NCBI GenBank assembly: GCA_037927135.1
Contig: JAXSPP010000003.1
Span: forward strand, 104,471 to 167,524
Length of the DNA stretch: 63,054 nt
From: Candidatus Pampinifervens sinense
GTDB taxonomy: Bacteria > Aquificota > Aquificia > Aquificales > Aquificaceae
Direction: 5' to 3'
Part shown: positions 12,198 through 41,061 of the stretch, piece after piece
Numbering within the stretch: position 1 is the stretch's first letter
How the letters are laid out: each line of letters begins with the position of its first letter
The notes under the pieces: model-generated
The model's database searches: none
What the model was told of the DNA's origin: nothing
What the model saw: only the letters and a program-made list of their open reading frames with translations
Translations under genes and position numbers: made by a program

Positions 12198-12212
12198 GTG
12201 TATATTAAAAAT

Positions 12213-12880
12213 ATGGTATACAAAAACCCGCCCCTTGTGGAGGCTTTGTGCGTAATCCATTTTACAGAACCCTACCCATGGGACCTAACACTCTTTGGCC
12301 TATTTCATGAAAGGTTAAAAAAGGACTTTCCATATAAAGAAAGCTATGCTTTGATGGGAGTTGAACAAAAGCCTACGGATAAAGGCTTGGAGCAGTTGCC
12401 CCACGCACCTTAGCGATAAGCAGGCTTTCTAATTACTCATGGGAGGATTTTAAGAAGGACATCTTGGAAATTTCTAAAATATACACAGAATTGACTAATT
12501 ACACCAATATTAAAGCATTGAACTTGGCTTACATAAATCTTATAAAATTTGACAGTGCTAAAACACATCCTTCTAAGTATATTAAACTATACCCGTCCCA
12601 TATAACCGGAAGGGAGGATTTCTCCTTACTTTTGAGGGCAGAAATTCCTTATGATAAAGGCGGGAAGCTTATATTAACATTAAACAGGCCAATGGAAATG
12701 GATAAAAATTTACTTGTTTTTGAATTGGCGTACTCCATGGAACTCCCAGAAGGTATGTCCTTTGAAGATATGGAAGGTATGCTTGACGCCTTTCATTATG
12801 AAATAAAAAGGGCCTTTGAGGAAAGCATTACGGATGATGCCCGTGCAGTCTTTGGAGGAGTGGAACATGATAGGTTATGA
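12213..12880 (+). pseudogene. Frameshifted TIGR04255-like gene
   Basis: N-terminal YKNPPLVEALCVIHF is typical of the family; the frame stops at 12413. A second frame carries VAPRTLAISRLSNYSWEDFKKDI... LAYINLI... FEESITD to 12880. The shift is near 12390. Confidence 0.7.
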
Positions 12881-13283
12881 CCAATATACAACCTTAGCAT
12901 ACCCTTATAAATATCCAATTGGGAGCATAACCTTTGCAACAACAGAATACATTATGAGAAAACTTGAACAATTTGAGGAGGAAGGCTTATACACATTTGA
13001 GGATAAGGAAGAAATAATAAGGTTTTTAATAAAAAATCCAGATTTAATCCAAGAGTTATACTCTGCACATCAGCATATTTGTAAAGTTTTTGGCGAGTGT
13101 AATATACATGTAAAGCTATATAAAGACCCAGAAGAAAACACGGAGGAGATTTTAATAGTCATAAAAAGTAAAAATCCACCAGAAAAGATTCTGGAACTAT
13201 ATGAAAGATTATTTGAAGATTGGTATATAAAGATTATGGACAAGGTATTTCCAAGGCTTGATTACACAGTAGAAACCACATGA
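12867..13283 (+). CDS. Hypothetical acidic protein, possible partner/antitoxin of the downstream HEPN protein
   Basis: ATG 12867 with GGAGGAG SD; ATGA overlap with the HEPN gene; no clear MNT motif. Confidence 0.6.
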   Translation: MIGYDQYTTLAYPYKYPIGSITFATTEYIMRKLEQFEEEGLYTFEDKEEIIRFLIKNPDLIQELYSAHQHICKVFGECNIHVKLYKDPEENTEEILIVIKSKNPPEKILELYERLFEDWYIKIMDKVFPRLDYTVETT

Positions 13284-13624
13284 GCTTTAATTGGAAAGAT
13301 TATGTAGATTTAGCAGAAGAACTATTAAAAAGGGAAGATGAGGCAAGCCATAGAAGTGCTGTTAGCAGGGCCTATTATGGTGTTTTCTGTATAGCAAGGA
13401 ATAGACTATCAATGACTTATGACAAGTCAAGGTCTGTGCATTGGCAAGTTATAAAAAGGCTTGGGGAATCAAACAATCCAAAGCATAAAAAGCTGGCTAA
13501 AATATTATCAGACCTTAAGAGAGCCCGTGAACGGGCGGATTATGAGGAAGATTCTTTCAAACGGGAGGATGCAGAAATAATGGTATTGTTAAGTAAGGAG
13601 GCCTTAAGCCTGTTGAAAGAGTAA
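13280..13624 (+). CDS. HEPN domain protein
   Basis: F-x-W-x-DY-x-x-LA, RSAVSRAYYGVF, H, and RERADY motifs of small standalone HEPN proteins. Confidence 0.8.
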   Translation: MSFNWKDYVDLAEELLKREDEASHRSAVSRAYYGVFCIARNRLSMTYDKSRSVHWQVIKRLGESNNPKHKKLAKILSDLKRARERADYEEDSFKREDAEIMVLLSKEALSLLKE

Positions 13625-13637
13625 AATATACATAGCC

Positions 13638-16600
13638 ATGTTTATTACCAACGAAAAGCAAAAAAGTTTGGGGGAAAGGCTAAAGGCTGTAATAAAGGAT
13701 AGTAGGGAGCTAAAGTTTTTGACGGCCTTTTTCTATTTTTCGGCCATTCCAGAGCTTTATTCGGCATTGAAAGAAAGGTATGAGAAGGGGGATATGCAAG
13801 AGGGCTTTATAAAGGTTTTAGTGGGGCTAAACGTGGACCTTGCCACCTACAGAATATACGAGCATGCCTTTGTAGAGGACCCAAGGAAAGACTTTTTAAA
13901 ATCCCTTGAGAGGGCTTTCAATTCTCAGGACTTGGACATAAAAGAGGTCTACGAGCAGGCAGAATTCTTTTTGAGGCTTTTGGAAGAAAAAAAGCTTATT
14001 TTAAAAAAGACAAGGGAGCCAAACCATGCCAAGCTTTACCTATTTAAACTCTCATCGGAGGCCATAAGATACCCCTTTTTTATAACTGGAAGTAGCAACC
14101 TAACAAGGGCTGGCCTAAACCACCAGCATGAGTTCAACATAGAGATAGGATTGGCGGAGTATGGAACAAAGGCTGAAGAATATTTTGACAAGCTATGGGA
14201 GGATGCGGTAGAGATAAGCCCAGAGGATGTTATAAAAACCATAAGAGAAAAAACCTTTATGAAAAAGATAACACCCTTTGAAGCATGGCTTTATCTTCTA
14301 AAGCTTTACCTTGAGCTCAACACAAGCTTTGAGAAGGAAGAGTGGGAAAGGGCGGAAGAGATTTTGAGAGGAGCAGAATATAAGCCTTATAAATATCAGG
14401 TTGAGGCCATATTGCAAGGTGTTAGGAGCCTAAAGGAGTATAACGGTGTGCTTTTGGCAGATGTGGTAGGACTTGGAAAATCTGTTATAGCCTGCGGTAT
14501 TGCCAGAATGCTTGGCAAAAGAGGCTTGGTAGTCTGCCCACCCCATCTTGTGGGAGATAAAAGTGCAAACTGGGGATGGAAAAAGTATTTAAATGATTTT
14601 AAACTTCACGATTGGGAAGTATGGTCCTTAGGAGAGCTTGAAGATGTATTGGATTTTGTAAAAAGGAACCCTGATATTGAGATTGTTATAGTGGATGAGG
14701 CCCATAGGTTTAGGAACGAGAAGACAAAAAGATACCACTACTTGCATGAGATATGCAGGGGGAAGATGGTAATGCTACTTACGGCCACACCCTTTAATAA
14801 CAGGCCATCGGACATATACGCCCTTTTGAAACTTTTTACCGTGCCCGCCAGGTCAAACTTGGTCCTTGATGAGGACATTGAAAGCCTGTTTAAAGGCTAC
14901 GAGAATGAGTTTAGAAGGCTTTTGAGGGAAAAAAGAGAAGCTCAAAGCAATAGAAAAAAGGAGATAGAAGAAAGGCTTAGAGAAATAGCAAAGGAGATAA
15001 GGAGTATTATTGAACCAATAACCATAAGAAGGAACCGCTTGGACCTAAAGTATTATGGTGAAGAAATACCAATGCCAAAGGTGGAAGACCCAATAGCATG
15101 CTACTATGAACTCACCAAAGAGCAATCTGAGTTTTACGATGAGGTCATAAGGTCCTTTGAAGAGGATGGAGAATTTAAGGGAGCCATATACTACCCTGCA
15201 AAGTATTTGAAAGACAAGGAAGAAGACGTCTTTATGGAAGAGTCTCAAAAGAACCTTTACAACTTTATGAGGAGGCTTTTGGTAAAGAGGTTTGAAAGTA
15301 GCTTTAATGCCTTTTATAAGAGCATAAACAACTTTATAGAATTACACAATAAGGCTTTGGATTTTGTAAAAAGGACAAAAACCTTTATCCTTGACAGAAA
15401 ATTTATGGAGGACCTTTTGGGAGAAGAGGATGATGAGAAGATAGAAAAGGCCATAAAGGAATACATTGAAAAACTGGAAGAAAATACAAAGGACAAAAAA
15501 TACCAGAAGGTCTACAAGCTTGAAGACCTAAGAGATGAATTTGTAAAACACATAGAAGGGGATATTGAGCTTTTCAAGAGGATAAAGGAAAGGATGAAAA
15601 GCCTGAGGCTTTTGAAAGAGGACCCAAAGGTGGAAAAACTAATACAAGAGGTGAAAAAATACATAGATGCTGGAAGAAAGGTTTTAATCTTTACCGAGTA
15701 TGTGGATACGGCCAACTATCTTGATAAAAAACTCAAAGAAGTATTCGGTGATAAGGTATTGACGGCCACAGGCCAGTTTAATAAAAGTATGATAGATGAA
15801 ATAAACAACAACTTTAACGCAGAAAAGGATGATGAAGGGAAATACCATATACTTATAACAACGGATAGACTATCAGAAGGTTTTAACCTACACAGGGCTG
15901 GTGTGGTCATAAACTACGATATTCCTTGGAACCCAGTAAGAGTAATACAAAGAGTGGGAAGGATAAACAGGATTGGCAAGAAGGTCTACGATGAGATATA
16001 CATTCTAAACTTCTTCCCAACGGAGAGGGGAGAGAGCGAAACAAGACAAAGGGAAATAGCCCAAAGCAAAATGTTTATGATACACGATATACTTGGTGAG
16101 GATGCGAAGATATTCTCTCCAGAAGAGGAGCCAAGCCCATCAAAACTTTATGAGAGATTAACCAAAAACCCAGAGGAGCTGGAAGAAGAATCCTTTATCA
16201 CATCACTGCGCAAAGAATGGGAAGCCTATCAAAAGGAGTATGGAGACATCATACAAAGGCTTGAGAATATGCCCACACGCCTAAAGGTGGCCAAGCCCTA
16301 CCAAAGGGATGAGCTAATAGTGGTAGTAAAAAGTGGCACAGACCTTTTTGTGGTAAAGAAGGACCAAGATGGCATAAGGTCCGTTGGCTTTGAAGATGTG
16401 TACGAATCTGTAAAGGCACAGCCAGACACGCCAAGATTGCCCCATAGCCCAAGCTTTTGGGATAGCTACAATAAGCTTTTGGAACATCTTGAAAAGAGGC
16501 AAAGAACTAAGTATGCAAACAATTTAAGGAACATAAACTCTGCCTTTAATGTGATAAGAACTGTGGAAAAGAAGTATGGGCAGATGCTAAGCGAGGACGA

Positions 16601-16850
16601 AAGGGAGTTTTTACAGAATATAAAGAAGGACATAGAAAGCTATAGGACCCTTACGGAAGAGGCCATAAGAAGGATACAAGAGTGGGGAGAATACTTAGAT
16701 GATTTAGAAAAGCTAAAAGAAAGCATAAAGGAGCTTATGGATGAGCTTGGAAAAGACTTTTTGGAAAAAGCTGTAAAGGGCAAGGAAAAAGAAAAAGTAG
16801 TTATAATATCCATAGAAAACAGGGGGCAGGAAGATGGAGAGGCTTATTGA
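13638..16850 (+). CDS. PLD-nuclease domain/SNF2-type SF2 helicase fusion
   Basis: NHAKLYLF...GSSNLT...E (single HKD-type PLD); LADVVGLGKS, VDEAHRFRN, LTATP, SEGFNL, WNPVRVIQRVGRINR. Confidence 0.9.
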   Translation: MFITNEKQKSLGERLKAVIKDSRELKFLTAFFYFSAIPELYSALKERYEKGDMQEGFIKVLVGLNVDLATYRIYEHAFVEDPRKDFLKSLERAFNSQDLDIKEVYEQAEFFLRLLEEKKLILKKTREPNHAKLYLFKLSSEAIRYPFFITGSSNLTRAGLNHQHEFNIEIGLAEYGTKAEEYFDKLWEDAVEISPEDVIKTIREKTFMKKITPFEAWLYLLKLYLELNTSFEKEEWERAEEILRGAEYKPYKYQVEAILQGVRSLKEYNGVLLADVVGLGKSVIACGIARMLGKRGLVVCPPHLVGDKSANWGWKKYLNDFKLHDWEVWSLGELEDVLDFVKRNPDIEIVIVDEAHRFRNEKTKRYHYLHEICRGKMVMLLTATPFNNRPSDIYALLKLFTVPARSNLVLDEDIESLFKGYENEFRRLLREKREAQSNRKKEIEERLREIAKEIRSIIEPITIRRNRLDLKYYGEEIPMPKVEDPIACYYELTKEQSEFYDEVIRSFEEDGEFKGAIYYPAKYLKDKEEDVFMEESQKNLYNFMRRLLVKRFESSFNAFYKSINNFIELHNKALDFVKRTKTFILDRKFMEDLLGEEDDEKIEKAIKEYIEKLEENTKDKKYQKVYKLEDLRDEFVKHIEGDIELFKRIKERMKSLRLLKEDPKVEKLIQEVKKYIDAGRKVLIFTEYVDTANYLDKKLKEVFGDKVLTATGQFNKSMIDEINNNFNAEKDDEGKYHILITTDRLSEGFNLHRAGVVINYDIPWNPVRVIQRVGRINRIGKKVYDEIYILNFFPTERGESETRQREIAQSKMFMIHDILGEDAKIFSPEEEPSPSKLYERLTKNPEELEEESFITSLRKEWEAYQKEYGDIIQRLENMPTRLKVAKPYQRDELIVVVKSGTDLFVVKKDQDGIRSVGFEDVYESVKAQPDTPRLPHSPSFWDSYNKLLEHLEKRQRTKYANNLRNINSAFNVIRTVEKKYGQMLSEDEREFLQNIKKDIESYRTLTEEAIRRIQEWGEYLDDLEKLKESIKELMDELGKDFLEKAVKGKEKEKVVIISIENRGQEDGEAY

Positions 16851-19800
16851 AAACCTGATAAATCAATTTTCCTTGAGTAATCTTAGAAAATTCTTTGAAG
16901 AAAAGCTAAGAATAGAGCTAAGGGAAGAGGAAGATGTTTTGCCAAGTGTGGATTATGAAGAATACTTTGGAAAGCTTTATGTTTTAAAGCCTTATGGAGA
17001 GGAAAGCATAAAGTTAAAGGATGATACCATAGCCATATATGCCATAGAAAGCAAAAAGGAGCTATCGGAAAGAAGCAGTAAAAGAAGGCAGTTTGAGCTT
17101 GCAAAAAGGCTTTTGGACTTTGAAGACGGTGGCTTTTTTGTCTTTTATGATAAAAAGGGCAATTTTAGGTTCTCTTTTGTTCATAAGATTTATAAAGGCA
17201 GAAAGACAGAGTTTAGCCACTATAAGAGATATACCTACTTTGTTCAAAAGGGAAAGCCTTACAGGACCTTTAAAGAGGCCTTATTGGAATTACAGCTTGA
17301 TAGCATAGGGAGTATCACAAAAGCCTTTGCTGTCCAACCCCTTGTAAAGGAATTTTACAAGGAAATTCAAAACTGGTATGCTTGGGCTTTGAAAGACGAT
17401 AGAGTCTGGTTTCCCGGTGGGACAAAGGAAGAGAACCTTATAAGGCTTATTACAAGGCTTATATTTGTATGGTTTTTAAAGGAGATGAGGCTTGTGCCGG
17501 AAGAAATTTTTGATGAGGAGAGGTTAAAGGATATAGTTAAGGACTTTGGAAGTGGAAACTACTACTACAATGTCATACTTCAGAACCTTTTCTTTGCAAC
17601 CTTGAACAGGGAGGTCAGCAAAAGGGAGTTTGCAAAGGAAGGGGATTTTTTACAAAACAGAACACACTTTGGAGTTAAAAACCTATACAGATATCAAAGC
17701 TTTTTAAAGATTCCACCAGAGGACTTTATAAAACTCTTTGAGAAAACACCCTTTATAAACGGTGGGCTTTTTGAGTGTTTGGATGAAGACAGACAATATG
17801 TGGATGGCTTTTCAATGGAAGAGAGCAAAAGGGCAAAGATTCCAGATGAGTTTTTCTTTTTGGATGAAAGAACAGAAGACCTGTCTTACTTTTATGGCAC
17901 GAACGCAAGAAGGGAAAAGGTAAGAGGACTTATAAACATCCTTAAAGACTACAACTTTACGGCAGATGAAAACTCTCCTGTGGATGTGGAAGTATCTTTG
18001 GACCCAGAGCTTTTAGGGCATATCTTTGAAAACCTTTTGGCAAGCTACAACGAGGAGATACAAACCACCGCCAGAAAGGCCACAGGTTCTTATTACACGC
18101 CAAAGGAGATAGTGGATTTTATGGTGGAGGAAAGCCTGAAGGAATACCTTAGGACAAAAACAGGCATTGAGGAAGGAAGCGTAGAAAAGCTTTTTGGCTT
18201 TGAGGAAAATGTGGAGCTAAGCGAGGAAGAGAGGCACAAGATTCTTAAAGCAATAGATGAGATAAAGGTATTGGACCCTGCCGTAGGTTCTGGAGCCTTT
18301 CCTATGGGAGTTTTACACAAGCTTGTTTATCTGCTTGAAAGGATAGACCCAAACAATGAGCTTTGGTATGAACTGCAATACCAAAAGGCATTAAAAGAAG
18401 CCAAGGATATACTAAGGATAGAAAACAAAGACACAAGAGAAGAGCTTTTAAAGGAGCTTAACGAAAACTTTGATGAGGCAATAACTTACCCAGACTATGC
18501 CAGAAAGCTTTATATTTTGCAAAACTCCATATACGGTGTGGATATTCAAAACATAGCCATCCAGATAACCAAGCTAAGGTTTTTCCTATCTTTGATAATA
18601 GACCAAAAGCCAGACCCAAGCAAAGAAAACCTTGGCATAAAACCACTTCCACACTTGGAGACAAACTTTATAACTGCAAATACTTTGATAGGCTTGGAAA
18701 GCCAAGGACAGGAAAGAGTGCTTGAAAGTCCTAAGATAACTCAGCTAAAGGCAGAGCTAAAGAAGCTTTACAAAAAGCACTTTTCCATAAGGTCAAGGGA
18801 GGAGAAGAAAAGGATTCAAGATAGGGCAAAGGCTATAAGAGAAGAGATAAAACAAGAGCTTGAAAGAATAGGCTATTCAAACGATACGGCTCAAAAGATA
18901 GCAGAGTTTGATATCTTTGACCAGCTTGCAAGGGCAGATTGGTTTGACCCCGAGTGGATGTTTGGAGTGGTGGATGGGTTTGATATTGTGATTGGAAATC
19001 CGCCGTATGTGAGGCAAGAGAAAATTAAGAAAGATAAACCATTACTCCAAAAACAAGGCTACGAGGTTTTCACATCCACCGCAGACCTTTATGTGTATTT
19101 TTACGAAAAAGGTTATCAGCTTTTGAAACAAAAGGGCATTTTGGCATACATAACAAGCAATAAATGGATGAGGGCAAAGTATGGAGAAAATCTGAGGAAG
19201 TTTTTAAAAGAAAAAACCACCATCATAAAGCTTATAGACTTCGGCGGTTATAGAGTTTTTGAACAAACAGTGGATACTTGCATCCTTCTGTTCAAAAAAG
19301 AAAAACCACCAAAGGGACACACCTTTGAGTTTTTAACGGTGCCAAGCGATGTGGAAGACTTAGAAAGCTATTTGAGAAAAAGAAGCAAGTATTTAATAGA
19401 ACAGGAAACTGAAACGGCACTTAAAAGGGTGGAGTCTTGGAGTGAGGTTAAAACTTGGCAAGGTTTTAGGGACTGGCAGACCGCTTATGTTGGAAACTGG
19501 CAAACTATGTTGCAAGAAAAACTCTCCAACAACGGCTGGACACTCGGAGATGACAAAGTTTTGAGCTTAAAAGAAAAGATTGAAAAAGTAGGAAAACCCT
19601 TAAAAGAGTGGGATGTAAAGATTTACAGAGGAGTTTTAACGGGCTACAACGACGCTTTTATCATAGACACGCAAACACGAAACAGGATTTTGGCAAATTG
19701 CAAGGATGAAGAGGAAAGAAAGAGAACAGAGGAAATAATTAAGCCAGTTTTGAGAGGCAGGGATATTAAGAAGTATAGGTATAAGTGGGCGGGATTGTGG

Positions 19801-20403
19801 GTAATTTTGGCTACAAAGCATACAATAACTTCTTGCGTCTTAGATTACTTAAAAAAACATAAAGAAGCTTTAGAGAAGAGGGCTGGTAATCAAGAATGGT
19901 ATGAACTACAAGCACCACCAAGCAAAGAAAAAATAAGTTTGCTTTTATTGGATAAAATAGGTTATTCTGATATAGGTTTTAGATTTGCTTTTATACAGAA
20001 TGGAATTGTTGGGCTTAATACAACCTATTTTATAATACCTTACAAAAATAGAGAAAATAGAAGAAGAATTTTGCTATATTTACTTGGAATTTTAAACTCC
20101 AAGCTAATTATGTTCTATTATCGCAATACTGCCCAAGTTTTATCAAAGGAAGCTACAAGAGGTTTTTCAATATATGTAGAACAACTCCCCATCCCTCCCA
20201 TCACTCCCCAAACCCAACCCCTCGCAGACCAAATAGTCCAAAAAGTCCAAGAAATCCTCACGCTTACCCAATCCCCCGATTTTGAGACCAGCCAAGAAAA
20301 ACAGCAAAAAGTCAAAGAACTTGAAAGAGAAATAGACCAGCTGGTTTACAAGCTTTATGGATTGACGGAAGAGGAGATAAGGATAGTGGAGGGAGAGTTA
20401 TAA
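16834..20403 (+). CDS. Type IIG-like (Eco57I/TaqI_C) restriction-modification enzyme / amino-methyltransferase
   Basis: GSYYTPKEIV, VLDPAVGSGAF (SAM binding), FDIVIGNPPY (catalytic), C-terminal TRD with YLLGILNSKL and EIDQLVYKLYGLT. Confidence 0.92.
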   Translation: MERLIENLINQFSLSNLRKFFEEKLRIELREEEDVLPSVDYEEYFGKLYVLKPYGEESIKLKDDTIAIYAIESKKELSERSSKRRQFELAKRLLDFEDGGFFVFYDKKGNFRFSFVHKIYKGRKTEFSHYKRYTYFVQKGKPYRTFKEALLELQLDSIGSITKAFAVQPLVKEFYKEIQNWYAWALKDDRVWFPGGTKEENLIRLITRLIFVWFLKEMRLVPEEIFDEERLKDIVKDFGSGNYYYNVILQNLFFATLNREVSKREFAKEGDFLQNRTHFGVKNLYRYQSFLKIPPEDFIKLFEKTPFINGGLFECLDEDRQYVDGFSMEESKRAKIPDEFFFLDERTEDLSYFYGTNARREKVRGLINILKDYNFTADENSPVDVEVSLDPELLGHIFENLLASYNEEIQTTARKATGSYYTPKEIVDFMVEESLKEYLRTKTGIEEGSVEKLFGFEENVELSEEERHKILKAIDEIKVLDPAVGSGAFPMGVLHKLVYLLERIDPNNELWYELQYQKALKEAKDILRIENKDTREELLKELNENFDEAITYPDYARKLYILQNSIYGVDIQNIAIQITKLRFFLSLIIDQKPDPSKENLGIKPLPHLETNFITANTLIGLESQGQERVLESPKITQLKAELKKLYKKHFSIRSREEKKRIQDRAKAIREEIKQELERIGYSNDTAQKIAEFDIFDQLARADWFDPEWMFGVVDGFDIVIGNPPYVRQEKIKKDKPLLQKQGYEVFTSTADLYVYFYEKGYQLLKQKGILAYITSNKWMRAKYGENLRKFLKEKTTIIKLIDFGGYRVFEQTVDTCILLFKKEKPPKGHTFEFLTVPSDVEDLESYLRKRSKYLIEQETETALKRVESWSEVKTWQGFRDWQTAYVGNWQTMLQEKLSNNGWTLGDDKVLSLKEKIEKVGKPLKEWDVKIYRGVLTGYNDAFIIDTQTRNRILANCKDEEERKRTEEIIKPVLRGRDIKKYRYKWAGLWVILATKHTITSCVLDYLKKHKEALEKRAGNQEWYELQAPPSKEKISLLLLDKIGYSDIGFRFAFIQNGIVGLNTTYFIIPYKNRENRRRILLYLLGILNSKLIMFYYRNTAQVLSKEATRGFSIYVEQLPIPPITPQTQPLADQIVQKVQEILTLTQSPDFETSQEKQQKVKELEREIDQLVYKLYGLTEEEIRIVEGEL

Positions 20404-20430
20404 TAAAAAGCATGAAGGAGGGAAAGTGAA

Positions 20431-21225
20431 ATGACAAACATAATCTCAGAAGCTTTTGAGAAGTTTATTGAGGAATGTCTTAAAAATTATGAGATTAGTC
20501 CAAACTTTGAGAAGTTGGTTCTAATAGCAGACAGCCAAACCAATGGTAGATTTACACCGTTGATAAAAATTATAAAGCACTGGAATGGAAGGATTGGAGA
20601 TATTATGGACCCTTTATTTTTAGAAGCTGTAGCTTTATGCATATTTTATAAATCTCCATTGAAGAGTAAAAAGCCATCACAATATCCTAAGTTTAAACGC
20701 TTTGATGATTTTCCAAAGGCTTTGAAAATGTTTTTCTCCAGTCAGATATTAATAGAAGCTTTACGAAACGGCTTAGAGATATTACCCTTAGAGATGTTAC
20801 CTTTATATATCCGAGGCAATAAACTACCAGAGGCCAAGCCTACCAAGTTAAAGGAATTTCTTTATGATGTAAAGAATTTTATAGAAGATTTTAGAAAAGT
20901 AGAGGACAGCATAAGATATAGAAGAGTGGTGGATGAAGTATTTCCAGAGCATCTTGGTTTAACCCCTGAAGAGGTAAAAAAGAAAAAGAGAAGGATTGTA
21001 GAATATATCTTTGAAATAGCGGGCAAGGGCTATATACCAGATGTAATAATAGACCAAATGGTAGCCGGATTTAACATAGATTTACTTCTTACCTTTAATG
21101 ATATAGGAGCCATTAAAAACACAGCATCAAAAATAACAGAGGCAATTGAGCTATCTAATACATCACCAGAAAGAGCAATGGAAATTTGGAGAAACATATT
21201 AGGCAACTGTTTTCCATCTGTATAA
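20431..21225 (+). CDS. SMODS/CD-NTase-like helical protein apparently lacking the catalytic NTase core
   Basis: N-terminal IISEAFEKF...NYEIS, then NGRFTPLIKIIKHWN...FLEAVA and C-terminal AMEIWRNILGNCFP. No GS...DxD motif. SD GGAGGG. Confidence 0.55.
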   Translation: MTNIISEAFEKFIEECLKNYEISPNFEKLVLIADSQTNGRFTPLIKIIKHWNGRIGDIMDPLFLEAVALCIFYKSPLKSKKPSQYPKFKRFDDFPKALKMFFSSQILIEALRNGLEILPLEMLPLYIRGNKLPEAKPTKLKEFLYDVKNFIEDFRKVEDSIRYRRVVDEVFPEHLGLTPEEVKKKKRRIVEYIFEIAGKGYIPDVIIDQMVAGFNIDLLLTFNDIGAIKNTASKITEAIELSNTSPERAMEIWRNILGNCFPSV

Positions 21226-21361
21226 AACATGACCTAAATCATAAACACAACTCATTGAGTTCCTTGAAATATTTTAATGGGACAATTTTAAGCTATAACA
21301 ATATGATATGCACCATATTATGAAAAGGAATGATAAACTCACATGCTAAAATATTAGTGCA

Positions 21362-22537
21362 ATGATTACAGAACTAACAATTTCTAACTTTAGGTCCATA
21401 AAGAAGCAAAAAATAAAACTTGGTGCTTTAAATGTGCTTTATGGACCAACGGCAAGCGGAAAATCCAGCCTACTATATGCTCTTATGGTATTTAACAAAA
21501 TAATAACCAATCCAAACCAACCCATAGATAACTTCTTTGACCTTGGATTTATAGACCTTGGAGGCCTAAAAGAGTGCCTTTATGGAAAGGATGAAGAATT
21601 GGCCATGGAAATATCTTACTCAACAAACTCTGGAGAGTTTGGTATATCCCTAAAAAAGGACAAAGCAAACACCTATCTTAAATACAAAAACATTAAGCTA
21701 ACTGCGGAGTTTAGCATACCTTATAAACAGACAAAGATATTTGAGACAAAAATAGACCTTAAAACTCTAAAAGGTAAAGCCTATTGGAATGGTTTTTATG
21801 TGCTTGGCTTGTCTGGAAGCGTGGAGGAAGAAGGACAAACTGGAAATTTAATCTCTAAGCTTAATGAAATAGCCAACACTATTAAACAGGTTGATATAGC
21901 ACCGCATAACCGTGGATTTTTTGAAGCTTTTTATTCACACTACCTAAGGTATGAAGTTCCACACGTCCTTATATCCGATGAAGAGGTAGCATCAGCCATA
22001 ATAAACCAAGAAGACCTTGTACCAAAAATAAGCAAAGCTTTGGAAGAGATTGCAAACAAAAGCTTTAGGATACATCCTATCCAAGGCATACCATTATCAA
22101 GATTTCTTATACAGGAAAAAGGTTCAAATCAAGAGATTTTAATTACCAACGAAGGCTTTGGAATTAATCAGGTAGTTTATATGTTTGCAAAGCTTTATCT
22201 AAAAGACAAAAAGATAATACTCATAGAGGAACCAGAAATACACCTACATCCATCCATTATTAGAAAGCTTGCAAAAATTATGTGTAAAATTGTGGAGGAA
22301 GAGAACAAACAGATTATATTGACTACACATAGTGAAGTTTTTGTATCTTCCTTATTGTCTGCTATTAGAAGGAAGGATATATCACACAAAAAGGTAAAAT
22401 TCTATTTGGTAGAAAAGGAAAAAGGAGAGACCATATTTAAGGAGCAGGAATGTGATGAGAAAGGGAGGATAAAAGGCGGGCTTTCTTCTTTTATGGAAGG
22501 AGAATTAGAAGACCTAAAAGCATTTTTTGAAATTTAA
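21362..22537 (+). CDS. ABC-type (AAA_15/AAA_21-like) ATPase
   Basis: ISNFRSI, Walker A GPTASGKS, EGFGINQ signature, Walker B ILIEEPEIHLHP, TTHSE H-loop. Confidence 0.9.
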   Translation: MITELTISNFRSIKKQKIKLGALNVLYGPTASGKSSLLYALMVFNKIITNPNQPIDNFFDLGFIDLGGLKECLYGKDEELAMEISYSTNSGEFGISLKKDKANTYLKYKNIKLTAEFSIPYKQTKIFETKIDLKTLKGKAYWNGFYVLGLSGSVEEEGQTGNLISKLNEIANTIKQVDIAPHNRGFFEAFYSHYLRYEVPHVLISDEEVASAIINQEDLVPKISKALEEIANKSFRIHPIQGIPLSRFLIQEKGSNQEILITNEGFGINQVVYMFAKLYLKDKKIILIEEPEIHLHPSIIRKLAKIMCKIVEEENKQIILTTHSEVFVSSLLSAIRRKDISHKKVKFYLVEKEKGETIFKEQECDEKGRIKGGLSSFMEGELEDLKAFFEI

Positions 22538-22539
22538 AA

Positions 22540-22998
22540 ATGATTTTGGTAATAGATGAATGGATATGGCATGTACTCATAGGGGAACATGGAAGAGAAG
22601 AACAGGAAAAGGCAATAAGGTTTTTAATAAAAATGATAGAAAAATGTGATAAACTGGCTGTAGCCCATAAATCAAAGTTTGAAGAGAAGTTGCGGAAATT
22701 TTTAAAACAAAGTGATACTGAGAATAGGAGGGTAGCAAGAATACTTACTAACAATATATTTTATAACAGTGATAAATACCTTGAAGTTCAATTAAGGGAA
22801 AAGGATATAAATATTGAATGCGTTAATATTGACGATAAATATTTAGTAAACCTGTGCTATCAATTGATGGAAGATTACGGCGAGAAAGAAGTTGTGTTTA
22901 TAACCACGGATAGGAAACTAATAGAATGCCTTAAAAAAGAAAGTAGCAAAATAAATTGTTATACGAAGGAAGATTTTCTGGAGAACTATCTTGATTAG
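22540..22998 (+). CDS. PIN-like domain protein (putative RNase)
   Basis: Acidic residue after the first strand (ILVIDE), DDKYL, and FITTDRKL match the PIN acidic pattern; starts 2 nt after the ATPase stop. Confidence 0.65.
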   Translation: MILVIDEWIWHVLIGEHGREEQEKAIRFLIKMIEKCDKLAVAHKSKFEEKLRKFLKQSDTENRRVARILTNNIFYNSDKYLEVQLREKDINIECVNIDDKYLVNLCYQLMEDYGEKEVVFITTDRKLIECLKKESSKINCYTKEDFLENYLD

Positions 22999-23021
22999 AT
23001 TTTATTATCTCTCCAAACGGC

Positions 23022-23079
23022 TATAATATAAACCATGGGGGGTTTTGATATATAATATAAACCATGGGGGGTTTTGATA
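23022..23079 (+). repeat. Exact 29-bp tandem duplication containing the -10 box and start codon
   Basis: tataatataaaccatggggggttttgata at 23022-23050 and again at 23051-23079. Confidence 0.97.
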
Positions 23080-26000
23080 GTGTCCTTGGGTTTGTCTTTG
23101 AGGGGGCCTTTAAGCTGGGGTTTTTAAAAGATAGGATTCCTGACTATAAGGATTTTACTGAGGGTGTTTTTGCCAAGCTAAAGGGTGAAGCAGAAAGGGC
23201 AGAAGATGAAGAGCTTGTAAGAATAATAGAGGATATAGAGAGAGCCTTTGACAAGTATGATGTTTTTAATCCACCTGAGAATATGAGGGAGCTAAGCAGG
23301 CTTTATGTGAGTTATACAGAAGATGGGGAAGGGCAGGGTATAAGAAGGGAGTGGAAGGAGATATATACTAAGCTTGTCTTTGCCATAGGCTATGCAGGTG
23401 GGTATTTTTACAACAAGAGCCTTAAGGATGTGGAGCTTAAAAGGTATGAGATGGGGGAAGAGTCGGATGAGATCATATGGCAGAATGCGGACCTGGTCTT
23501 TGTGGAAGGTAAAACGCTTCATATAGTAGACTTTAAGCTTGGTGGAACGAGAAAGGTTTTAAGAGATATTTTAACTGGTTCAAGAAATAGGATACCTATA
23601 CAAACCTACGGTATACCAGTAAATCTGTCTTTGGGTGAGCTGGAGTTTTATAACTTTTTAGAGAAGTTTATGCAAGTGAAGGAAAAGTTGAGGGAGTCGG
23701 AGGATGTTTTTGTGGAAAATAAGGGGCTTTTGCAGGTGCTTTCTTATGCGGTAGATTTTCTCTGTTCTGAAGAGGATCCTATAGATGAGGTTAGCTTGGA
23801 GCTTTTGTATCCAGTGCAGGAGCCTTTGAGCCTTAGGTTTTTTGTAAAAAACAGAGAGGGGCTTGTAAAGTTTGCAGAGGAGTTAAAGGAGCTGTATAAG
23901 GATATAAAGGGTAAGGAAAAGCTTTATAGGGAAGTGGATGTAGAGCCAGAAAAGGAGGGGGCAAGGAAAAAGAGAGTAAGAGAAGAGGTAAGTAAAAGAA
24001 TTGGAGAGCTGGAAGAGGAGATAAAGAGAAGGGAAAAAGAAAAGCTTGTGCTTAAGACTGGAGATATAAATGCTGTTAGGGATGATGTTAAAAGAAGACT
24101 GGAAGATTTTATGAAAAGGCCTGAGCCTTGTAAGGCTATTGCACTTCTTCACTCCGCCGGTAGTGGAAAGACTTCAAGGACGAGGGAGCTTATACTTGGT
24201 ATGGAAGGGAAGCATGTGGTCCTTTATATGGCTACGCGCCTAATCCTTTTAAACAGAGAGATTGATAAACTTAGAGAGGTAAAAAAAGAGTCCTCTAAAA
24301 GTATAGAACTGGTTTATGAAAGGGGCAAGTATAAAGGTAATGTAGCCATAGATAGGGGTACTCATTTTAAGTCTGTGGGAGGGAAAAGAGAGGGTAAGCT
24401 ACAGGCTACGGTGAAGAAGATATATGAATTGGTGCAGGATAAAAGGCCAGATTTGGTGTGGGCCTTTGCCACCATTCAAAGCTTGGTAGAGACCGCCCGC
24501 GGTGGTAAAACTTCAGAACACTTAGATACACTTTTGGGACCATACTTTAAAGATTATCACATACACATAATCCTTGATGAATTCCTCGGTTATAAAAACG
24601 GCTTTTTTGCCATAATGGAGATGCTTAGGTTTTTAGAAAAAGTAAGAAGTAAAGGAAGGAAGGCAAGCCTTTATATCTTTGACGCCAACGGCTATTCTCC
24701 AAACCTTTTGTTAAAGCTTATGGAAGAGTATAAAGAGTTTGAAGTGGTGCCAGATTCCTTAGTTTTAAGCCAATATGAGGATGAGGTAAAGACCTATTAT
24801 AAAGACATTCCTTTTGAGGTATATGCCAAGCATGGCTTTCCAGCCAATGGACTTGTGGTAAGTAAGAAGTTTATTAGAGTGGAAAAGAAAGAAGAAATTC
24901 CAAAGCATTTGGCAAGTTATATAAAAGAAACCTTAAATAACAAGGAAAGCACGGGCTTTGCCTTTATTCAAGATAAGGAGATTATTAACGACCTTGTCAG
25001 AGAATTGGAAGTTTTTGGGCTTTCTTCCATAAGGGTGCATGCCAGTTCTAAAAAGAGCCAAGAGCAGATAAATAATGGCTGGGAAGATGTGATTTTAGGC
25101 ACTTCATCTGTTTCAAGGGGTCTTGACTTTAGCAGGCCACACAAGCCGGTGGATTATATATACATAGTGGTCCAATCATGGGGCATAGAAAACAACTTGG
25201 TGGAGACCATACAAGCCTTGTCGCGTTCAAGGGGGGATGAAATAACAGAGAACAGGCCAAAGCATCTTCATCTGATTTATATAATAGACCAAAATATAGA
25301 CAACGCCGTAGATAACATAGCCAGTTATATGGATCATCCTGACAAGGACCTTGTAAGGCTTATATACACAAAGGAACAGCTGGAAGGCTTTTTGGACCTT
25401 GATGTAGCTATCACAAAAATTGTAGAACAGTTCCTTTCAAAGCCAGAAGATAAGGTGCTTGTGCCAGTGCCTACACAACACAAGAGCAGGTATATAGACA
25501 ACGTAATATCCAGGTATGAAAACGCAGTAGCCTTTGTGGATGATATATATGATATAGAAAAGCAAGAGGATATACGCGATTTTAAGGAGCTTTTGAAAAA
25601 TATAGCGTACACCTATACATCCATCAAAAGGACTTTTCAGAAGTTTAGCTACTACCATCCTTACATACTCCTTGAGGATTATGAAATCTTTTTCCGCATA
25701 GACAATGAAAAAAGATGGAAGCTTAAAAAACTCTTTGAGAGTGTAAAACCTATCTTGAAAGAACACAATAATGAAAGAACGCAGGAGCTGGAGGAATTTT
25801 TGGAAGAAGTTTTGCCTACAGAGGAAAACAAAGCGCCGTTGATTATACCTGTTTATTCTATGGTTTTTGTAAATAACTGGCTAAGGGAAAATGAAAAGCT
25901 TGAGCTTAAGATAAGTAAGAGAGCTGGTAGGGGTAATGCGGAGGTCTTGGGTGGCGATTTGGAGCCAAGGACTCTTTGCTATTTGGGTAGTCATATAGAG

Positions 26001-26105
26001 TATGCCTGCATACCTTTGGGAGAAAACTATCCTTATAAAGAGGTTTTAAGTGGCAGGTTTGCCAAGTTTCCTGTAAAATTTATCAAAAGCCTTTTGGAGG
26101 GGTAA
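23064..26105 (+). CDS. RecB-type PD-(D/E)XK nuclease fused to a divergent SF2 helicase
   Basis: D143...D156-F-K158 plus Q224xxxY228; coiled-coil linker; HSAGSGKT (Walker A, K369), ILDEF (Walker B, D505/E506), GTSSVSRGLDF (motif V), QALSRSRG (motif VI). Confidence 0.8.
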   Translation: MGGFDSVLGFVFEGAFKLGFLKDRIPDYKDFTEGVFAKLKGEAERAEDEELVRIIEDIERAFDKYDVFNPPENMRELSRLYVSYTEDGEGQGIRREWKEIYTKLVFAIGYAGGYFYNKSLKDVELKRYEMGEESDEIIWQNADLVFVEGKTLHIVDFKLGGTRKVLRDILTGSRNRIPIQTYGIPVNLSLGELEFYNFLEKFMQVKEKLRESEDVFVENKGLLQVLSYAVDFLCSEEDPIDEVSLELLYPVQEPLSLRFFVKNREGLVKFAEELKELYKDIKGKEKLYREVDVEPEKEGARKKRVREEVSKRIGELEEEIKRREKEKLVLKTGDINAVRDDVKRRLEDFMKRPEPCKAIALLHSAGSGKTSRTRELILGMEGKHVVLYMATRLILLNREIDKLREVKKESSKSIELVYERGKYKGNVAIDRGTHFKSVGGKREGKLQATVKKIYELVQDKRPDLVWAFATIQSLVETARGGKTSEHLDTLLGPYFKDYHIHIILDEFLGYKNGFFAIMEMLRFLEKVRSKGRKASLYIFDANGYSPNLLLKLMEEYKEFEVVPDSLVLSQYEDEVKTYYKDIPFEVYAKHGFPANGLVVSKKFIRVEKKEEIPKHLASYIKETLNNKESTGFAFIQDKEIINDLVRELEVFGLSSIRVHASSKKSQEQINNGWEDVILGTSSVSRGLDFSRPHKPVDYIYIVVQSWGIENNLVETIQALSRSRGDEITENRPKHLHLIYIIDQNIDNAVDNIASYMDHPDKDLVRLIYTKEQLEGFLDLDVAITKIVEQFLSKPEDKVLVPVPTQHKSRYIDNVISRYENAVAFVDDIYDIEKQEDIRDFKELLKNIAYTYTSIKRTFQKFSYYHPYILLEDYEIFFRIDNEKRWKLKKLFESVKPILKEHNNERTQELEEFLEEVLPTEENKAPLIIPVYSMVFVNNWLRENEKLELKISKRAGRGNAEVLGGDLEPRTLCYLGSHIEYACIPLGENYPYKEVLSGRFAKFPVKFIKSLLEG

Positions 26106-26108
26106 AAA

Positions 26109-28439
26109 ATGTTTGAAAGCAGGTTTAGGATGGAAGATGAGAGGATGGATGCCTTTGCAAAGGGGGAGCATTATGGTAATAACTTTATGTATGCAGGCCT
26201 TTTCTATAGCTACTACCAGAGGTATATGGACAGTATAGCCAACTTCTTTCACAAGCTTGTAAGAAAGGAAGATGTGAAGGTCGCCTTTGAGAAGTTTTTA
26301 TACGAAGATAAGCCTGTGGAGGGTCCAGCTAAATACTCTATTGGTAAGCTGCAGGGGTGGTTAAAGCCTTGGGGCATATTTAAAAACACACAGACTGCCA
26401 GTTTTCCAAGGTCTGCACCAAACAGTAAGTTCAACGTGCTTGAACTAAAGGTTTCTCCATCTTCTGAAATGGGTGAGAAGGCTGGGCTTGTATTTTTGAA
26501 AATAAGGGGTTATAAGGATATGGAGTTTGGAAAGGAAGTAGAGTGGAGGGCAAAGAAGGACCTTATGGATGAGTGGATAAGGCTGAGTGAAAGCGAGGCG
26601 GTAAGGGAATACCTTAAGGAGGTAAGGGAAGTTTACAATCTTTTAGAGGATGCCCTACCGAGAGATTATTATAGACCTCCTACTTCAAGGATAGCCTACT
26701 ATCTTTTTCCTATAGAGCTAAGGTCTTTTGGCGGGTCTGTGATTGTTTCAAAGGCAAGCCTATACAAAAGAAGGGAAGAGACAAGGAAAGAGCTTTGGAA
26801 GGAAATATTGAAGGAGTTTGAATCTACAGAGGACAACAAAAGAGCTAAGAAGGATCTGGAGTTTGCTTTGGAAGAGAAAGGGAAAAAGCTTGATTATCTT
26901 GAAAAGCTTTTGGAGAAGGCTTTAGACCAAGATCATTTGAATACTTTGAGAAGGGACTGGAAGGAGTTTTTAAGAAAGTGTTTAAAGGGTGAAAGTGATA
27001 AGCTTTCTGCGGTCTTTGTGGGAAAGGTGCCAGAAAAGAATCCACCTTGGGTATCCTTTGGCACTTACCATATTCCGAGCGTGGAGCTTGAGCTTTATGT
27101 CTTTGCGGAAGAGGGCTTTGAGCTGGAAGTAAATGGAAAGACTTATAAGGCGGAGGATATAGTAAGGATTTTAAATAGGGAGTTTTTAAACTTTAGATTT
27201 TTGGGAAATGCCAAGATAAAGTTGGTAGGGTCTGTAAAGCTCCTGGATGAGCTCTTTGGCAAGAATGGTGCCCTTGAAATTATCAAAGGATACAATTTGG
27301 AAGAGAGAACGCTAAAAAACAAAGATTCTGTGGACCTTGTATATTCCCTTGCCTATTTTTCTGCGAGGCTTTCAAACCTTATAGCCCAGATAAAGGATGG
27401 AAAGCTTAAAAACAAGTTTGTGGGAATTTTAATACTTTTGAACACAGAGTTTGAGGAGGGTGATAGGTATGCCCTTTGGGATGTGGTTAGCTTCATTTAT
27501 GATTACTTTGGCGTGCCTGTTCAAACTATTACCAAAAGGTCCTTGCGGTCTATATTTGATAAAGATAAAAAGTCTGGTACAATAAAAAACCTTGCCATAA
27601 GCCTTTATAAAGATTCAAAAGTTTTAGAGGTTGAATTTGACGGCTTTGACCTTCCAAAGGAAGCTGTGGTCTATGCGGTGGTAGAAAAGCCATCACCTAG
27701 GTTTTTCTACAGACGTGGAGAGATAGATGGTGGGTCAAGACACTATCTTTATGAAGTCTATAAGATAAGCATAAAGGAAAAAAGGGCCAAGATAGAGCTG
27801 GAGAAAAAATATTTTGAACTGCATGGTATGAGGGAGCTTGGAATAGAAAGTTTTATTGAAGAAAAGAAGAATTATCAAAATACCAAGTTCTGTTTTATAA
27901 CCACCTTAAGAGATTCTAAGCTTGGAGAACTTTATACCAAGCTTTCCACTCCAGAAGAGGAACACAAATTTTTACTCATCAGGTATGACGAGCTTAAAAC
28001 GGCATACTTTTCCGATAAGTCAAGGCAAGATTGCTACATAGTCTATACACAGGAGATGAGAAAGCTTTTTGAAAGGCTTGGCATACCAATAGAAAAGGAT
28101 GTGGCGGCCATAGCCCTAAAGCCAGCCCATCCACCTTCCATGGAAGAGGATATGTACCATCCTTCTTTACAGCTTTTCTTTACAGAAAGGGTAGGCTGGG
28201 AAAGGGATGATGTCTATTCTGAAAGGAAAAACCTCTTCATCTTTACAGTCCTTGCCCTCTCTATGTATGAAAGCGAGTCCTATATGACACCTTTTAGCAA
28301 GCTTAGCCTTTGGACTAAGGAAAGAAACTATTATCTTACTATAAGAAGGAATTACAAAGAGTATACGTTTCCGTTAAAATCTGTACTTTATGAGATGCTT
28401 ATGTTTGTTCAGGAAAGGCCTGGTGGTAAAGAATCTTAG
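26109..28439 (+). CDS. Divergent prokaryotic Argonaute-like (MID-PIWI) protein, probably catalytically inactive
   Basis: MID-like VGILILL...Y...FGVPVQTIT (G468)...IKNLAISLYK (N494), then PIWI-like VVYAVVE, FITTLRD (R601-D602), KFLLIRY and LALSMYESE..TP in Argonaute order; 3 nt downstream of the nuclease-helicase. Confidence 0.6.
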   Translation: MFESRFRMEDERMDAFAKGEHYGNNFMYAGLFYSYYQRYMDSIANFFHKLVRKEDVKVAFEKFLYEDKPVEGPAKYSIGKLQGWLKPWGIFKNTQTASFPRSAPNSKFNVLELKVSPSSEMGEKAGLVFLKIRGYKDMEFGKEVEWRAKKDLMDEWIRLSESEAVREYLKEVREVYNLLEDALPRDYYRPPTSRIAYYLFPIELRSFGGSVIVSKASLYKRREETRKELWKEILKEFESTEDNKRAKKDLEFALEEKGKKLDYLEKLLEKALDQDHLNTLRRDWKEFLRKCLKGESDKLSAVFVGKVPEKNPPWVSFGTYHIPSVELELYVFAEEGFELEVNGKTYKAEDIVRILNREFLNFRFLGNAKIKLVGSVKLLDELFGKNGALEIIKGYNLEERTLKNKDSVDLVYSLAYFSARLSNLIAQIKDGKLKNKFVGILILLNTEFEEGDRYALWDVVSFIYDYFGVPVQTITKRSLRSIFDKDKKSGTIKNLAISLYKDSKVLEVEFDGFDLPKEAVVYAVVEKPSPRFFYRRGEIDGGSRHYLYEVYKISIKEKRAKIELEKKYFELHGMRELGIESFIEEKKNYQNTKFCFITTLRDSKLGELYTKLSTPEEEHKFLLIRYDELKTAYFSDKSRQDCYIVYTQEMRKLFERLGIPIEKDVAAIALKPAHPPSMEEDMYHPSLQLFFTERVGWERDDVYSERKNLFIFTVLALSMYESESYMTPFSKLSLWTKERNYYLTIRRNYKEYTFPLKSVLYEMLMFVQERPGGKES

Positions 28440-28448
28440 CTATAAAAC

Positions 28449-28522
<74 letters not shown>

Positions 28523-28535
28523 TAGCCAAAGTATT

Positions 28536-28564
28536 ATTATACTGCTAAATTTCTATCAAGTCAA
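28536..28564 (-). promoter_or_regulatory. Sigma-70 promoter of tRNA-fMet
   Basis: Minus strand TTGACT (28564-28559), 17 nt, TATAAT (28541-28536). Confidence 0.75.
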
Positions 28565-40965: not shown

Positions 40966-41061
40966 GGGAGAGCTTGACGCGCTGGTGCGGTCCCGGGACT
41001 TCAAATCCCGTGAGGGGCCCTGAAAAGGGTCCCTGGAGGGTTCGATTCCCTCGCTCTCCCG
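40966..41061 (+). tRNA. selC: tRNA-Sec (TCA), CCA not encoded
   Basis: 8-bp acceptor stem GGGAGAGC/GCTCTCCC, anticodon arm CGGGA-CTTCAAA-TCCCG (TCA at 41001-41003), long variable arm, GGTTCGATTCC T-loop, discriminator G. Confidence 0.95.

Follow-up and report, generated by a model that had tools for sequence, protein, structure and literature searches.

Argonaute-based immunity is an active field, and to our knowledge its known architectures, namely slicing long-A prokaryotic Argonautes (pAgos), short pAgo abortive-infection systems, long-B nuclease systems and DdmDE, were all found via PIWI domains that are recognisable by sequence. Here we describe a two-gene locus in a 63,054-nt stretch of Candidatus Pampinifervens sinense (Aquificaceae; GCA_037927135.1, contig JAXSPP010000003.1, positions 104,471 to 167,524; this whole stretch is hereafter the window), which encodes a nuclease-helicase (gene 1) and an Argonaute-fold protein (gene 2). 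DdmE is a non-slicing pAgo of the long-C clade, with C-APAZ and an INS insertion, that uses 12-14-nt 5'-phosphorylated DNA guides and recruits DdmD, a DinG-like helicase without an iron-sulfur (Fe-S) cluster and with a C-terminal PD-(D/E)xK nuclease. The pPIWI-RE system is described as three genes, which always encode, in this order, a restriction endonuclease (REase), a DinG helicase and the pPIWI-RE protein (Burroughs, Iyer and Aravind 2013, PMC3702460). The pair reported here, an Argonaute with a helicase and a nuclease, is a known kind of combination in a new form. A first-pass annotation, made from the letters of the window and a list of open reading frames (ORFs), had described two tightly coupled genes of 1013 and 776 codons, and we recovered both ORFs as described, with a gap of 3 nt and a Shine-Dalgarno sequence (GGAGGGG) lying within the last codons of gene 1, just ahead of the gene 2 ATG (Table 1).

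Judged by analogy, DdmDE, the plasmid-elimination system of Vibrio cholerae, is the closest counterpart in logic. Both have two genes, one for an Argonaute-fold partner without a recognisable DEDX tetrad and one joining a superfamily 2 (SF2) helicase without an Fe-S cluster to a PD-(D/E)xK nuclease in a single polypeptide, and the logic proposed for our pair matches that of DdmDE, with guide-directed recognition followed by processive degradation. Whereas the DdmD nuclease is C-terminal, the nuclease motifs of gene 1 (residues 133-231) precede its helicase motifs (366-724), an order that had been read correctly from the start, and the gene 1 helicase is not demonstrably DinG/XPD-like. The effector gene comes first in our pair and the Argonaute gene second. 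Unlike DdmE, gene 2 has a MID pocket without the Tyr/Lys pair arrangement, position 461 never being Lys, and unlike DdmDE the new family is hosted by thermophiles. PADLOC, whose library presumably contains DdmDE models, places neither protein in a described system, and the same holds for Pfam and NCBIfam, so that the novelty first proposed for the pair withstood this check. No entry named DdmE stood among the best 50 matches of each fold search, in which some titles are generic. The pair also resembles pAgo systems with co-encoded effectors, in which an Argonaute-fold sensor is combined with a PD-(D/E)xK/Cas4-like or other effector.

In layout, the closest counterpart by the same kind of comparison is pPIWI-RE, with which the pair shares three activities in the same order at tight spacing, a distinctive N-terminal region in the PIWI protein and a patchy, horizontally spread distribution; an Arg and a Glu invariant near the gene 2 C-terminus may be a further likeness. 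In contrast to pPIWI-RE, nuclease and helicase form one 1013-residue polypeptide joined by a coiled coil, in full-length homologues too; gene 1 has no zinc ribbon and no Cys-rich DinG cluster; gene 2 is shorter (776 residues vs ~890-1040 for the nearest Atlas clusters); and the family occurs in archaeal metagenome-assembled genomes (MAGs) too. We therefore file the pair under neither DdmDE nor pPIWI-RE, the likeness to the latter being judged by description, profiles and language-model features. No description of the family was found in the literature available to us on pPIWI-RE, DdmDE homologues, long-C pAgos and Aquificaceae Argonautes; supplementary member lists (PMC3702460 Additional file 1) lay outside that scope, and a fused or thermophile form could be present there.

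Gene 2 and its predicted Argonaute fold

Gene 2 had no match in Pfam, NCBIfam or PADLOC (Pfam was also null on 10 distant and 26 aligned members), Pfam Piwi (PF02171) did not match it at E ≤ 1 or 26 family members at E ≤ 10, and a PDB sequence search with the gene 2 profile gave no naming match. As a control, PF02171 detected classical pAgos in 21 of 178 Aquificota genomes, and none in the window's genome. The family is small: at 90% identity it falls into 15 clusters, and a search of 1.84 billion proteins gave 45 representatives at E ≤ 0.001. Alignment A1 held 12 of the 15 clusters (one 99%-identical and three partial proteins were left out), and alignment A3 held 26 full-length or near full-length members, in all of which twelve residues were invariant (G318, E334, L414, Y454, P470, Q472, K493, N494, S498, E526, R747 and E762).

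A structural model built on A3 (pLDDT 85.8, pTM 0.87) gave 174 Foldseek matches in the PDB at E ≤ 0.001, and the best 50 of these 174 were all Argonaute/PIWI structures at probability 1.00, with both short and long pAgos among the best matches listed. Model ranges beginning at residues 109-129 and ending at 765-770 aligned to TtAgo, AaAgo, CpAgo, hAgo2 and MILI. As modelled, gene 2 has an Argonaute fold, with a MID followed by a PIWI domain superposable on solved Argonautes, and the expectation that residues ~435-740 would model as MID plus RNase-H was borne out for residues ~430-770, only Argonaute/PIWI structures standing among the matches listed. One earlier statement was wrong at the level of fold: the N lobe, called unrecognisable, can be recognised in the model because alignments to long Argonautes begin at residues ~110-125.

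The predicted MID segment alternates strands and helices in a Rossmann-like manner (436-443, 457-467, 471-474, 476-499 and 505-511), and the MID and PIWI segments quoted in the first-pass annotation are all in the translation and fall on the expected elements. Thus, VGILILL forms strand 436-443, VPVQT strand 471-474 and KNLAISLYK helix 485-499. Half of the invariant residues are concentrated here (Y454, P470, Q472, K493, N494 and S498), W457 is kept in 25/26 members, and K501 and K504 are each Lys in 25/26 and Arg in the remaining one. The lysine of the YxxxK motif had been reported as apparently absent, and position 461, placed there by a hhalign MID alignment that is not significant, is indeed Ser, Asn, Arg or Ala and never Lys. 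With the canonical lysine missing, 5'-end binding may differ or be absent, and the residue pattern is consistent with a pocket that is conserved but altered at the 5'-end site. Because the family is conserved (45 representatives) and has invariant residues in the predicted MID and PIWI segments, the observation lies far beyond chance.

From residue 518 on, the model follows the RNase-H-like beta-beta-beta-alpha-beta-alpha pattern (strands 518-528, 546-556, 559-570, 592-598, 621-634, 665-671, 686-693, 742-747 and 750-755, with helices between), in which VVYAVVE lies on strand 518-528, FCFITT on 592-598, FLLIRY on 621-630 and LALSMYESE at the end of helix 700-721. E526 ends the first strand, at the position of the first Asp in classical Argonautes, and the substitution noticed from the letters proved invariant (26/26). 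As first reported, no complete DEDX tetrad could be recognised: positions 2 and 4 were not identified, and residue 602 ('RDS', just past the fourth strand) was acidic only in close rows, being D/E in 15/16 of the closest and N/K/S/T/R in 7/10 of the distant ones. Since no DEDX tetrad is recognisable, we read the PIWI domain as probably non-slicing.

Alternatively, gene 2 could itself cleave as a guided nuclease, using a variant acidic site (E526, D/E602, and E723 or H684), while gene 1 makes guides or unwinds DNA, as RecBCD-type enzymes and the Cas4-family ACE1 do for long-A pAgos. The invariant E526 at the end of the first RNase-H strand, an acidic 602 in the close rows, residue 723 (acidic in 26/26) and H684 (kept in 22/26) all fit such a site, and the 526-602 spacing of 76 residues roughly matches the distance separating catalytic residues one and three in classical Argonautes. 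Gene 1 itself has a weak PADLOC match at residues 141-160 to an Argonaute-associated Cas4-like nuclease model (Aga_Cas4-like_Nuc, E 0.0089). The P. stutzeri PIWI-RE protein is reported as an active guided nuclease (PMC10991935), and cyanobacterial long-A pAgos are reported to work with ACE1 (PMC12094033). However, 7/10 distant rows lack the acidic side chain at 602 yet retain the fold elsewhere, the pattern to be expected if catalysis were not the feature under conservation, and neither a glutamate-finger candidate nor a fourth catalytic residue was identified in the A3 alignment and model. We regard an active slicer as unlikely.

A second alternative concerns ancestry and the chemistry of guide and target, and its general logic overlaps with our own: the pair may be a far-diverged pPIWI-RE branch in which the REase and helicase genes have fused. 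It would then act as Burroughs et al. proposed for pPIWI-RE, with a PIWI protein that uses RNA guides to detect the RNA-DNA hybrids or R-loops formed when invading DNA is transcribed, and that brings in helicase and nuclease. The nuclease, helicase and PIWI activities follow one another as in the strictly conserved pPIWI-RE arrangement, with closely spaced genes (PMC3702460). In a language-model feature search from members P0017 and P0122, the PF13032/PF13111/PF18157 cluster was the only named family set among the matches listed, at feature similarities of 0.94 (203 shared features) and 0.93 (198). R747, on strand 742-747, and E762, on helix 756-768, lie near a C-terminal beta-hairpin and helix and, being invariant in 26/26, are reminiscent of the R and E that gave pPIWI-RE its name and that are absolutely conserved there on a PIWI-specific beta-sheet extension; Med13 (MedPIWI) modules also appeared among the gene 2 fold matches listed. 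Against this, PF13032 (RNaseH_pPIWI_RE), PF18157 (MID_pPIWI_RE) and PF13111 (pPIWI_RE_X) matched none of the 26 members at E ≤ 10, and the gene 1 helicase lacks the DinG Cys cluster expected of a pPIWI-RE helicase. The PF13032 model found no member in the window's genome, in 178 genomes of Aquificota, in 5 carriers or in 401 genomes from another phylum, and no control genome gave a match above its cut-off; starting from P0153, the most distant member, a search aimed at pPIWI-RE sequences returned two proteins only. Both the proposed descent and the proposed sensing of hybrids are possible, if rather doubtful. A distant relationship to pPIWI-RE is nevertheless a live possibility, and it would lower the novelty of the pair somewhat.

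The predicted nuclease-helicase partner

The gene 1 protein has homologues in 95 clusters, of which 22 (35-87% identity) were aligned. The residues D143, D156, K158, Q224, Y228 and D231 were invariant in 22/22 and also in 13/13 of a second alignment, and E133 was kept in 20/22. Likewise invariant in 22/22 were the SF2 residues of motif I (GSGKT 366-370; G366, G368, K369 and T370), D505 and E506 of the non-canonical Walker B motif DEFL, and Q717, R721, R723 and G724, and the nuclease and helicase motifs that had been noticed from the sequence are thus present and identical throughout the aligned homologues. In the C-terminal domain C972, Y989, P990, Y991, E993, G997 and F999 were invariant, and YPYxE(V/I)LSGRF was the most conserved stretch of gene 1, as picked in the related-locus search.

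In the gene 1 model (pLDDT 84.2, pTM 0.82), strands 123-127, 144-148 and 151-157 and helix 162-171 follow in the core order expected for PD-(D/E)xK enzymes. With its D...(D/E)xK and QxxxY motifs, the region of residues 1-260 is predicted to be a nuclease of the RecB/Cas4 type, and it has no conserved Cys column that would point to a Cas4-type four-Cys Fe-S cluster. The coiled coil proposed between nuclease and helicase corresponds to long helices (265-282 and 299-325), and a sub-threshold Pfam match of coiled-coil type (KIF21A_4th) covers residues 268-346. The helicase part shows motifs I, II and VI together with a pair of RecA-like domains, and adopts an SF2 fold in the model. Other profile evidence was limited to sub-threshold matches to Helicase_C (Pfam, E 0.037) and type IV DinG (PADLOC, E 0.033); NCBIfam had no match, and PDB sequence searches with the protein and its profile showed similarity of a generic kind to DEAD-box C-terminal regions and nothing else (best E 0.00046). 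The fold matches do not separate the SF2 families, which all tie, and a DinG/XPD assignment was therefore considered unproven and was not adopted. DinG-type helicases are marked by a Cys-rich Fe-S region after strand 2 and a large helical insert; neither a zinc ribbon nor a Cys-rich DinG cluster was seen in the gene 1 alignment.

Linkage, spread and surroundings

We scanned one genome per species for the locus and found 31 loci with gene 1 relatives, in 30 of which a gene 2 relative lay directly downstream; in the exception (L009) the contig ends inside gene 1. Among 178 Aquificota genomes, gene 2 relatives occurred in 41 (39/89 in the window's family and 18/24 in its genus) and gene 1 relatives in 37, both genes being present in 36. 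In the five genomes with gene 2 only, the gene is a remnant, a piece cut off by a contig end, or a copy where a contig begins; the one with gene 1 only has a weak partial helicase match, and full-length pairs lie on the same contig at adjoining coordinates. The linkage of the two genes in other genomes, on which the proposed system depended, is therefore strict (30/31 loci, 36/37 genomes). A divergent copy (G041:C28:11483-16765) has the Argonaute-like gene apparently upstream of the nuclease-helicase on the same strand, the reverse of every other order. Short gene 2-family fragments without detected gene 1 in G051 (two pieces), G073 (111 nt) and G043 resemble what is left of a module after decay. 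The module has no conserved third gene; ThiF, tRNA-binding and ParB_N neighbours recur, but were rejected as local synteny among related Aquificaceae, and they are absent from the window.

Both genes are full length in 19 of the 31 loci. Across these 19 and the window, the gene 1 and gene 2 proteins had strongly correlated pairwise identities (r = 0.97, 190 pairs), and the two maximum-likelihood trees had all well-supported clades in common; since kin are not independent, these results show co-inheritance and not co-evolution. Carriers comprise Aquificaceae, Hydrogenothermaceae, Caldimicrobium, Caldipriscus and MAGs of Brevinematia, Sulfolobales and Aenigmatarchaeota, and matches to the gene 1 protein also named Micrarchaeaceae, Thermofilaceae and Bathyarchaeia. 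The Sulfolobales, Aenigmatarchaeota, Brevinematia and Caldimicrobium copies were nested inside Aquificaceae clades; the Sulfolobales copy was sister to the window's clade in both trees (100/100 and 100/99) and the Brevinematia copy to a Hydrogenobacter copy. On its 137-kb contig, the Sulfolobales module shows a GC dip (0.43-0.45 vs 0.47-0.49), and a neighbouring gene encodes the domain Pab87_oct, whose name comes from an archaeal (Pyrococcus) protein. This distribution supports horizontal movement, including between bacteria and archaea, with the proviso that shorter MAG contigs may be mis-binned. DNA near-identical to the locus was found in sequencing runs labelled mostly as hot-spring metagenomes.

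Classical pAgos (Pfam Piwi, 21/178) and the new family (41/178) occurred together only in genomes G069 and G080, and each was concentrated in genera of its own (5/8 vs 1/8 in g2 and 1/24 vs 18/24 in g1). This is a hint that the two are complementary in distribution among genomes that, as kin, are not independent.

The defence-island setting that had been proposed for the pair is seen in its GC content (0.33-0.40 over ~12-28 kb vs 0.43-0.49 for the remaining window) and in its genes, which comprise a HEPN-like ORF, an HKD-Snf2 helicase, a type IIG restriction-modification (RM) methylase, a fragment-like cyclase ORF, an NsnB/AriA-like ATPase and a PIN-like ORF. The module stands at the end of this island, 10 nt before a tRNA-Met gene beyond which ordinary genes follow (e.g., M24 peptidase, sigma-54 and transporters). 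A repeat of the tRNA-Met gene of the att type, of at least 12 nt, was not found elsewhere in the window, including the far island border, and an Rfam scan of 12000-29000 found tRNA and no further family. Elsewhere, the context was scanned for the 10 largest neighbours from 7 loci, a biased choice, and 6 of these 10 matched PADLOC defence models: two loci had HKD-Snf2 with type IIG, one mad3/mad8 and one a HamB-like helicase.

These contexts bear on a third possibility, that the pair is not mainly for defence and is instead an Aquificaceae module for chromosome maintenance, repair or replication termination, or a weapon of mobile elements, that happens to sit in variable regions. Its frequency in the family (39/89) and genus (18/24) fits such a role, as do 10 loci flanked by housekeeping genes such as those for ThiF and a tRNA-binding protein, and a PIWI-RE knockout is reported to be more sensitive to ciprofloxacin (PMC10991935). 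In contrast, a low-GC island at a tRNA gene with known defence genes, neighbours that differ between loci, decayed remnants in some genomes (G051, G073) and the nesting of distant hosts' copies in Aquificaceae clades are the marks of a horizontally moving accessory module, and no relatives were confirmed in IMG/VR viral contigs (gene 1 relatives, 0 of 14 pattern matches). We consider a role mainly outside defence quite improbable.

Table 1. Features of the two-gene module and its immediate surroundings (window coordinates)
Feature	Position	Strand	Basis
Gene 1, nuclease-helicase fusion, 1013 aa	23064..26105	+	ORF
Gene 1 residues 1-260, helical N-terminus and predicted PD-(D/E)xK (RecB/Cas4-like) nuclease core	23064..23843	+	Conserved motifs, model
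Gene 1 residues 265-325, predicted coiled-coil linker	23856..24038	+	Model helices
Gene 1 residues 327-745, predicted SF2 helicase core: two RecA-like domains, beta-rich insert 565-606	24042..25298	+	
Gene 1 residues 760-1013, conserved C-terminal domain ending in YPYxE(V/I)LSGRF	25341..26102	+	Near-invariant motif
Gene 2, predicted Argonaute-fold protein, 776 aa	26109..28439	+	ORF; model; Argonaute/PIWI fold matches
Gene 2 residues 1-430, predicted N lobe (N/linker/PAZ-analogue region)	26109..27398	+	Part superposable on long Argonautes from ~110
Gene 2 residues 431-515, predicted MID-like Rossmann segment	27399..27653	+	Model; cluster of invariant residues
Gene 2 residues 516-770, predicted PIWI-like RNase-H fold without recognisable DEDX tetrad	27654..28418	+	Model
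Low-GC defence island with the two-gene module at its end	12464..28439	+	GC content, gene contents, all genes on + strand
Tandem duplication, 29 nt, 100% identity	23022-23050 / 23051-23079	+	Repeat search; each copy with TATAAT and ATG
tRNA-Met gene, island boundary	28449..28522	-	ARAGORN; Rfam tRNA 65.5 bits

Gene 1 starts at the ATG of the second copy of the 29-nt duplication, the ATG of the first opening a frame of 6 codons only; the duplication may have arisen by recent slippage, or it may double the promoter and start. Promoter and terminator scans did no better than shuffles (27 vs 23.2 ± 4.9 and 3 vs 8.0 ± 2.5, respectively). Two hot-spring metatranscriptomes mapped over 20400-28600 had reads on the tRNA only and zero depth on the genes, and are uninformative on expression.

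Upstream of the module, 13638-20403 holds an HKD(PLD)-Snf2 helicase and type IIG RM-methylase pair (PADLOC C3a139/DrmD and REase_MTase_IIG), which lies upstream of the module again in L022 (826-7639) and L004 (1-6791) and thus forms a recurring neighbourhood. A 264-residue ORF (20431-21225) has short matches to oligonucleotide cyclases of the CBASS type (residues ~26-80 and the C-terminus; best E 1.3e-10), and may be either a leftover fragment or a highly diverged nucleotidyltransferase for which no effector is visible. Immediately ahead of gene 1, 21362-22998 encodes an NsnB/AriA/AbiL-like AAA_15/AAA_21 ATPase (391 residues) and, after a 2-nt gap, a 152-residue ORF with a weak PIN_4 match, a candidate ATPase-nuclease defence pair. 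At the Brevinematia locus (L018), a Prim-Pol/PriCT_1 primase gene (15816-16802) follows closely after the module, suggesting that this copy sits in a mobile element. Farther along the window, two molybdopterin-oxidoreductase ORFs (35030-35617 and 35630-38029) share a frame with a single TGA between them (35615-35617), and a tRNA-SeC gene lies 3 kb downstream (40966-41061); 35030-38029 is probably one selenocysteine-containing gene of the formate-dehydrogenase type.

Proposed mechanism and significance

Taken together, the two ORFs with their motifs and conservation, both folds, the strict linkage, the agreement of the trees and the defence-island context of this and several other loci, all obtained by computation, support at the level of folds, motifs and linkage the guide-directed DNA destruction first suggested for this pair. 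We favour, with some confidence, a mechanism in which the guided Argonaute-like protein recognises the target and the fused partner destroys it with its ATPase and nuclease. The MID-like pocket of gene 2 (invariant Y454, Q472, K493 and N494) would hold the 5' end of a short nucleic-acid guide, the guide would pair with invading plasmid or virus DNA, and the gene 2 protein, itself probably inactive in cleavage, would recruit or license the gene 1 enzyme through physical interaction. The intact SF2 ATPase of gene 1 would then translocate along DNA while the N-terminal PD-(D/E)xK nuclease degrades it, as in DdmDE. The hosts live at ~70-90 °C, and the pair probably forms a heat-stable, guide-directed system that destroys foreign DNA; guide loading and chemistry, PIWI inactivity, binding of the partners, the DNA target and the role in defence are steps that we infer.

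Several points weigh against this reading. TM-scores to solved Argonautes are low (0.22-0.34 query-normalised, 0.25-0.45 target-normalised) and identities only 8-13%. Alignment by hhalign of the gene 2 family to nine classical Aquificota pAgos (from 9/10 loci, the truncated L037 being left out) was not significant (probability 0.25%, E 0.24), the sole aligned stretch being the co-linear MID region, and a second profile-profile run gave E 0.062 vs 0.45 for the reversed control. The missing lysine at position 461 counts in the same direction, and the invariant E526, D/E602 in close rows and always-acidic 723 leave room for a variant active site. For gene 1, a profile of residues 1-260 had no PDB match by sequence, and the fold matches of the whole model span residues 335-908, with the nuclease domain outside. 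The module is frequent for an accessory defence gene (18/24 genomes of the window's genus), 3 of the 7 loci had no defence model among the scanned large neighbours, and the argument as a whole is computational. A complex prediction for full gene 2 with gene 1 residues 790-1013 (a guessed domain) scored 0.00 with a mark of 0.32, and speaks neither for nor against binding.

On a bolder view, which we offer tentatively, the family would be an unrecognised, deep-branching Argonaute clade, almost confined to hot-spring thermophiles and exchanged between bacteria and archaea, that joined up with a helicase and a PD-(D/E)xK nuclease in an event separate from the origin of DdmDE, and perhaps from that of pPIWI-RE. 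The remodelled pocket of this clade (Y454/W457...Q472...K493-N494, without the YxxxK lysine) would select a different guide end, and the pair would provide thermostable, programmable and processive DNA elimination.

These findings present an Argonaute-like family that is always accompanied by a nuclease-helicase, in which the domains run opposite to those of DdmD, and an Argonaute fold missed by every profile library tried and yet present in about a quarter of Aquificota genomes (41/178). If the proposed system is real, it would offer a comparison point for how pAgos hand their targets over to motors, and a source of proteins for structural work and high-temperature nucleic-acid tools. Moreover, censuses of pAgos based on Pfam Piwi would undercount the superfamily, and joining an Argonaute sensor to a helicase-nuclease executor would prove to be a solution that recurs.

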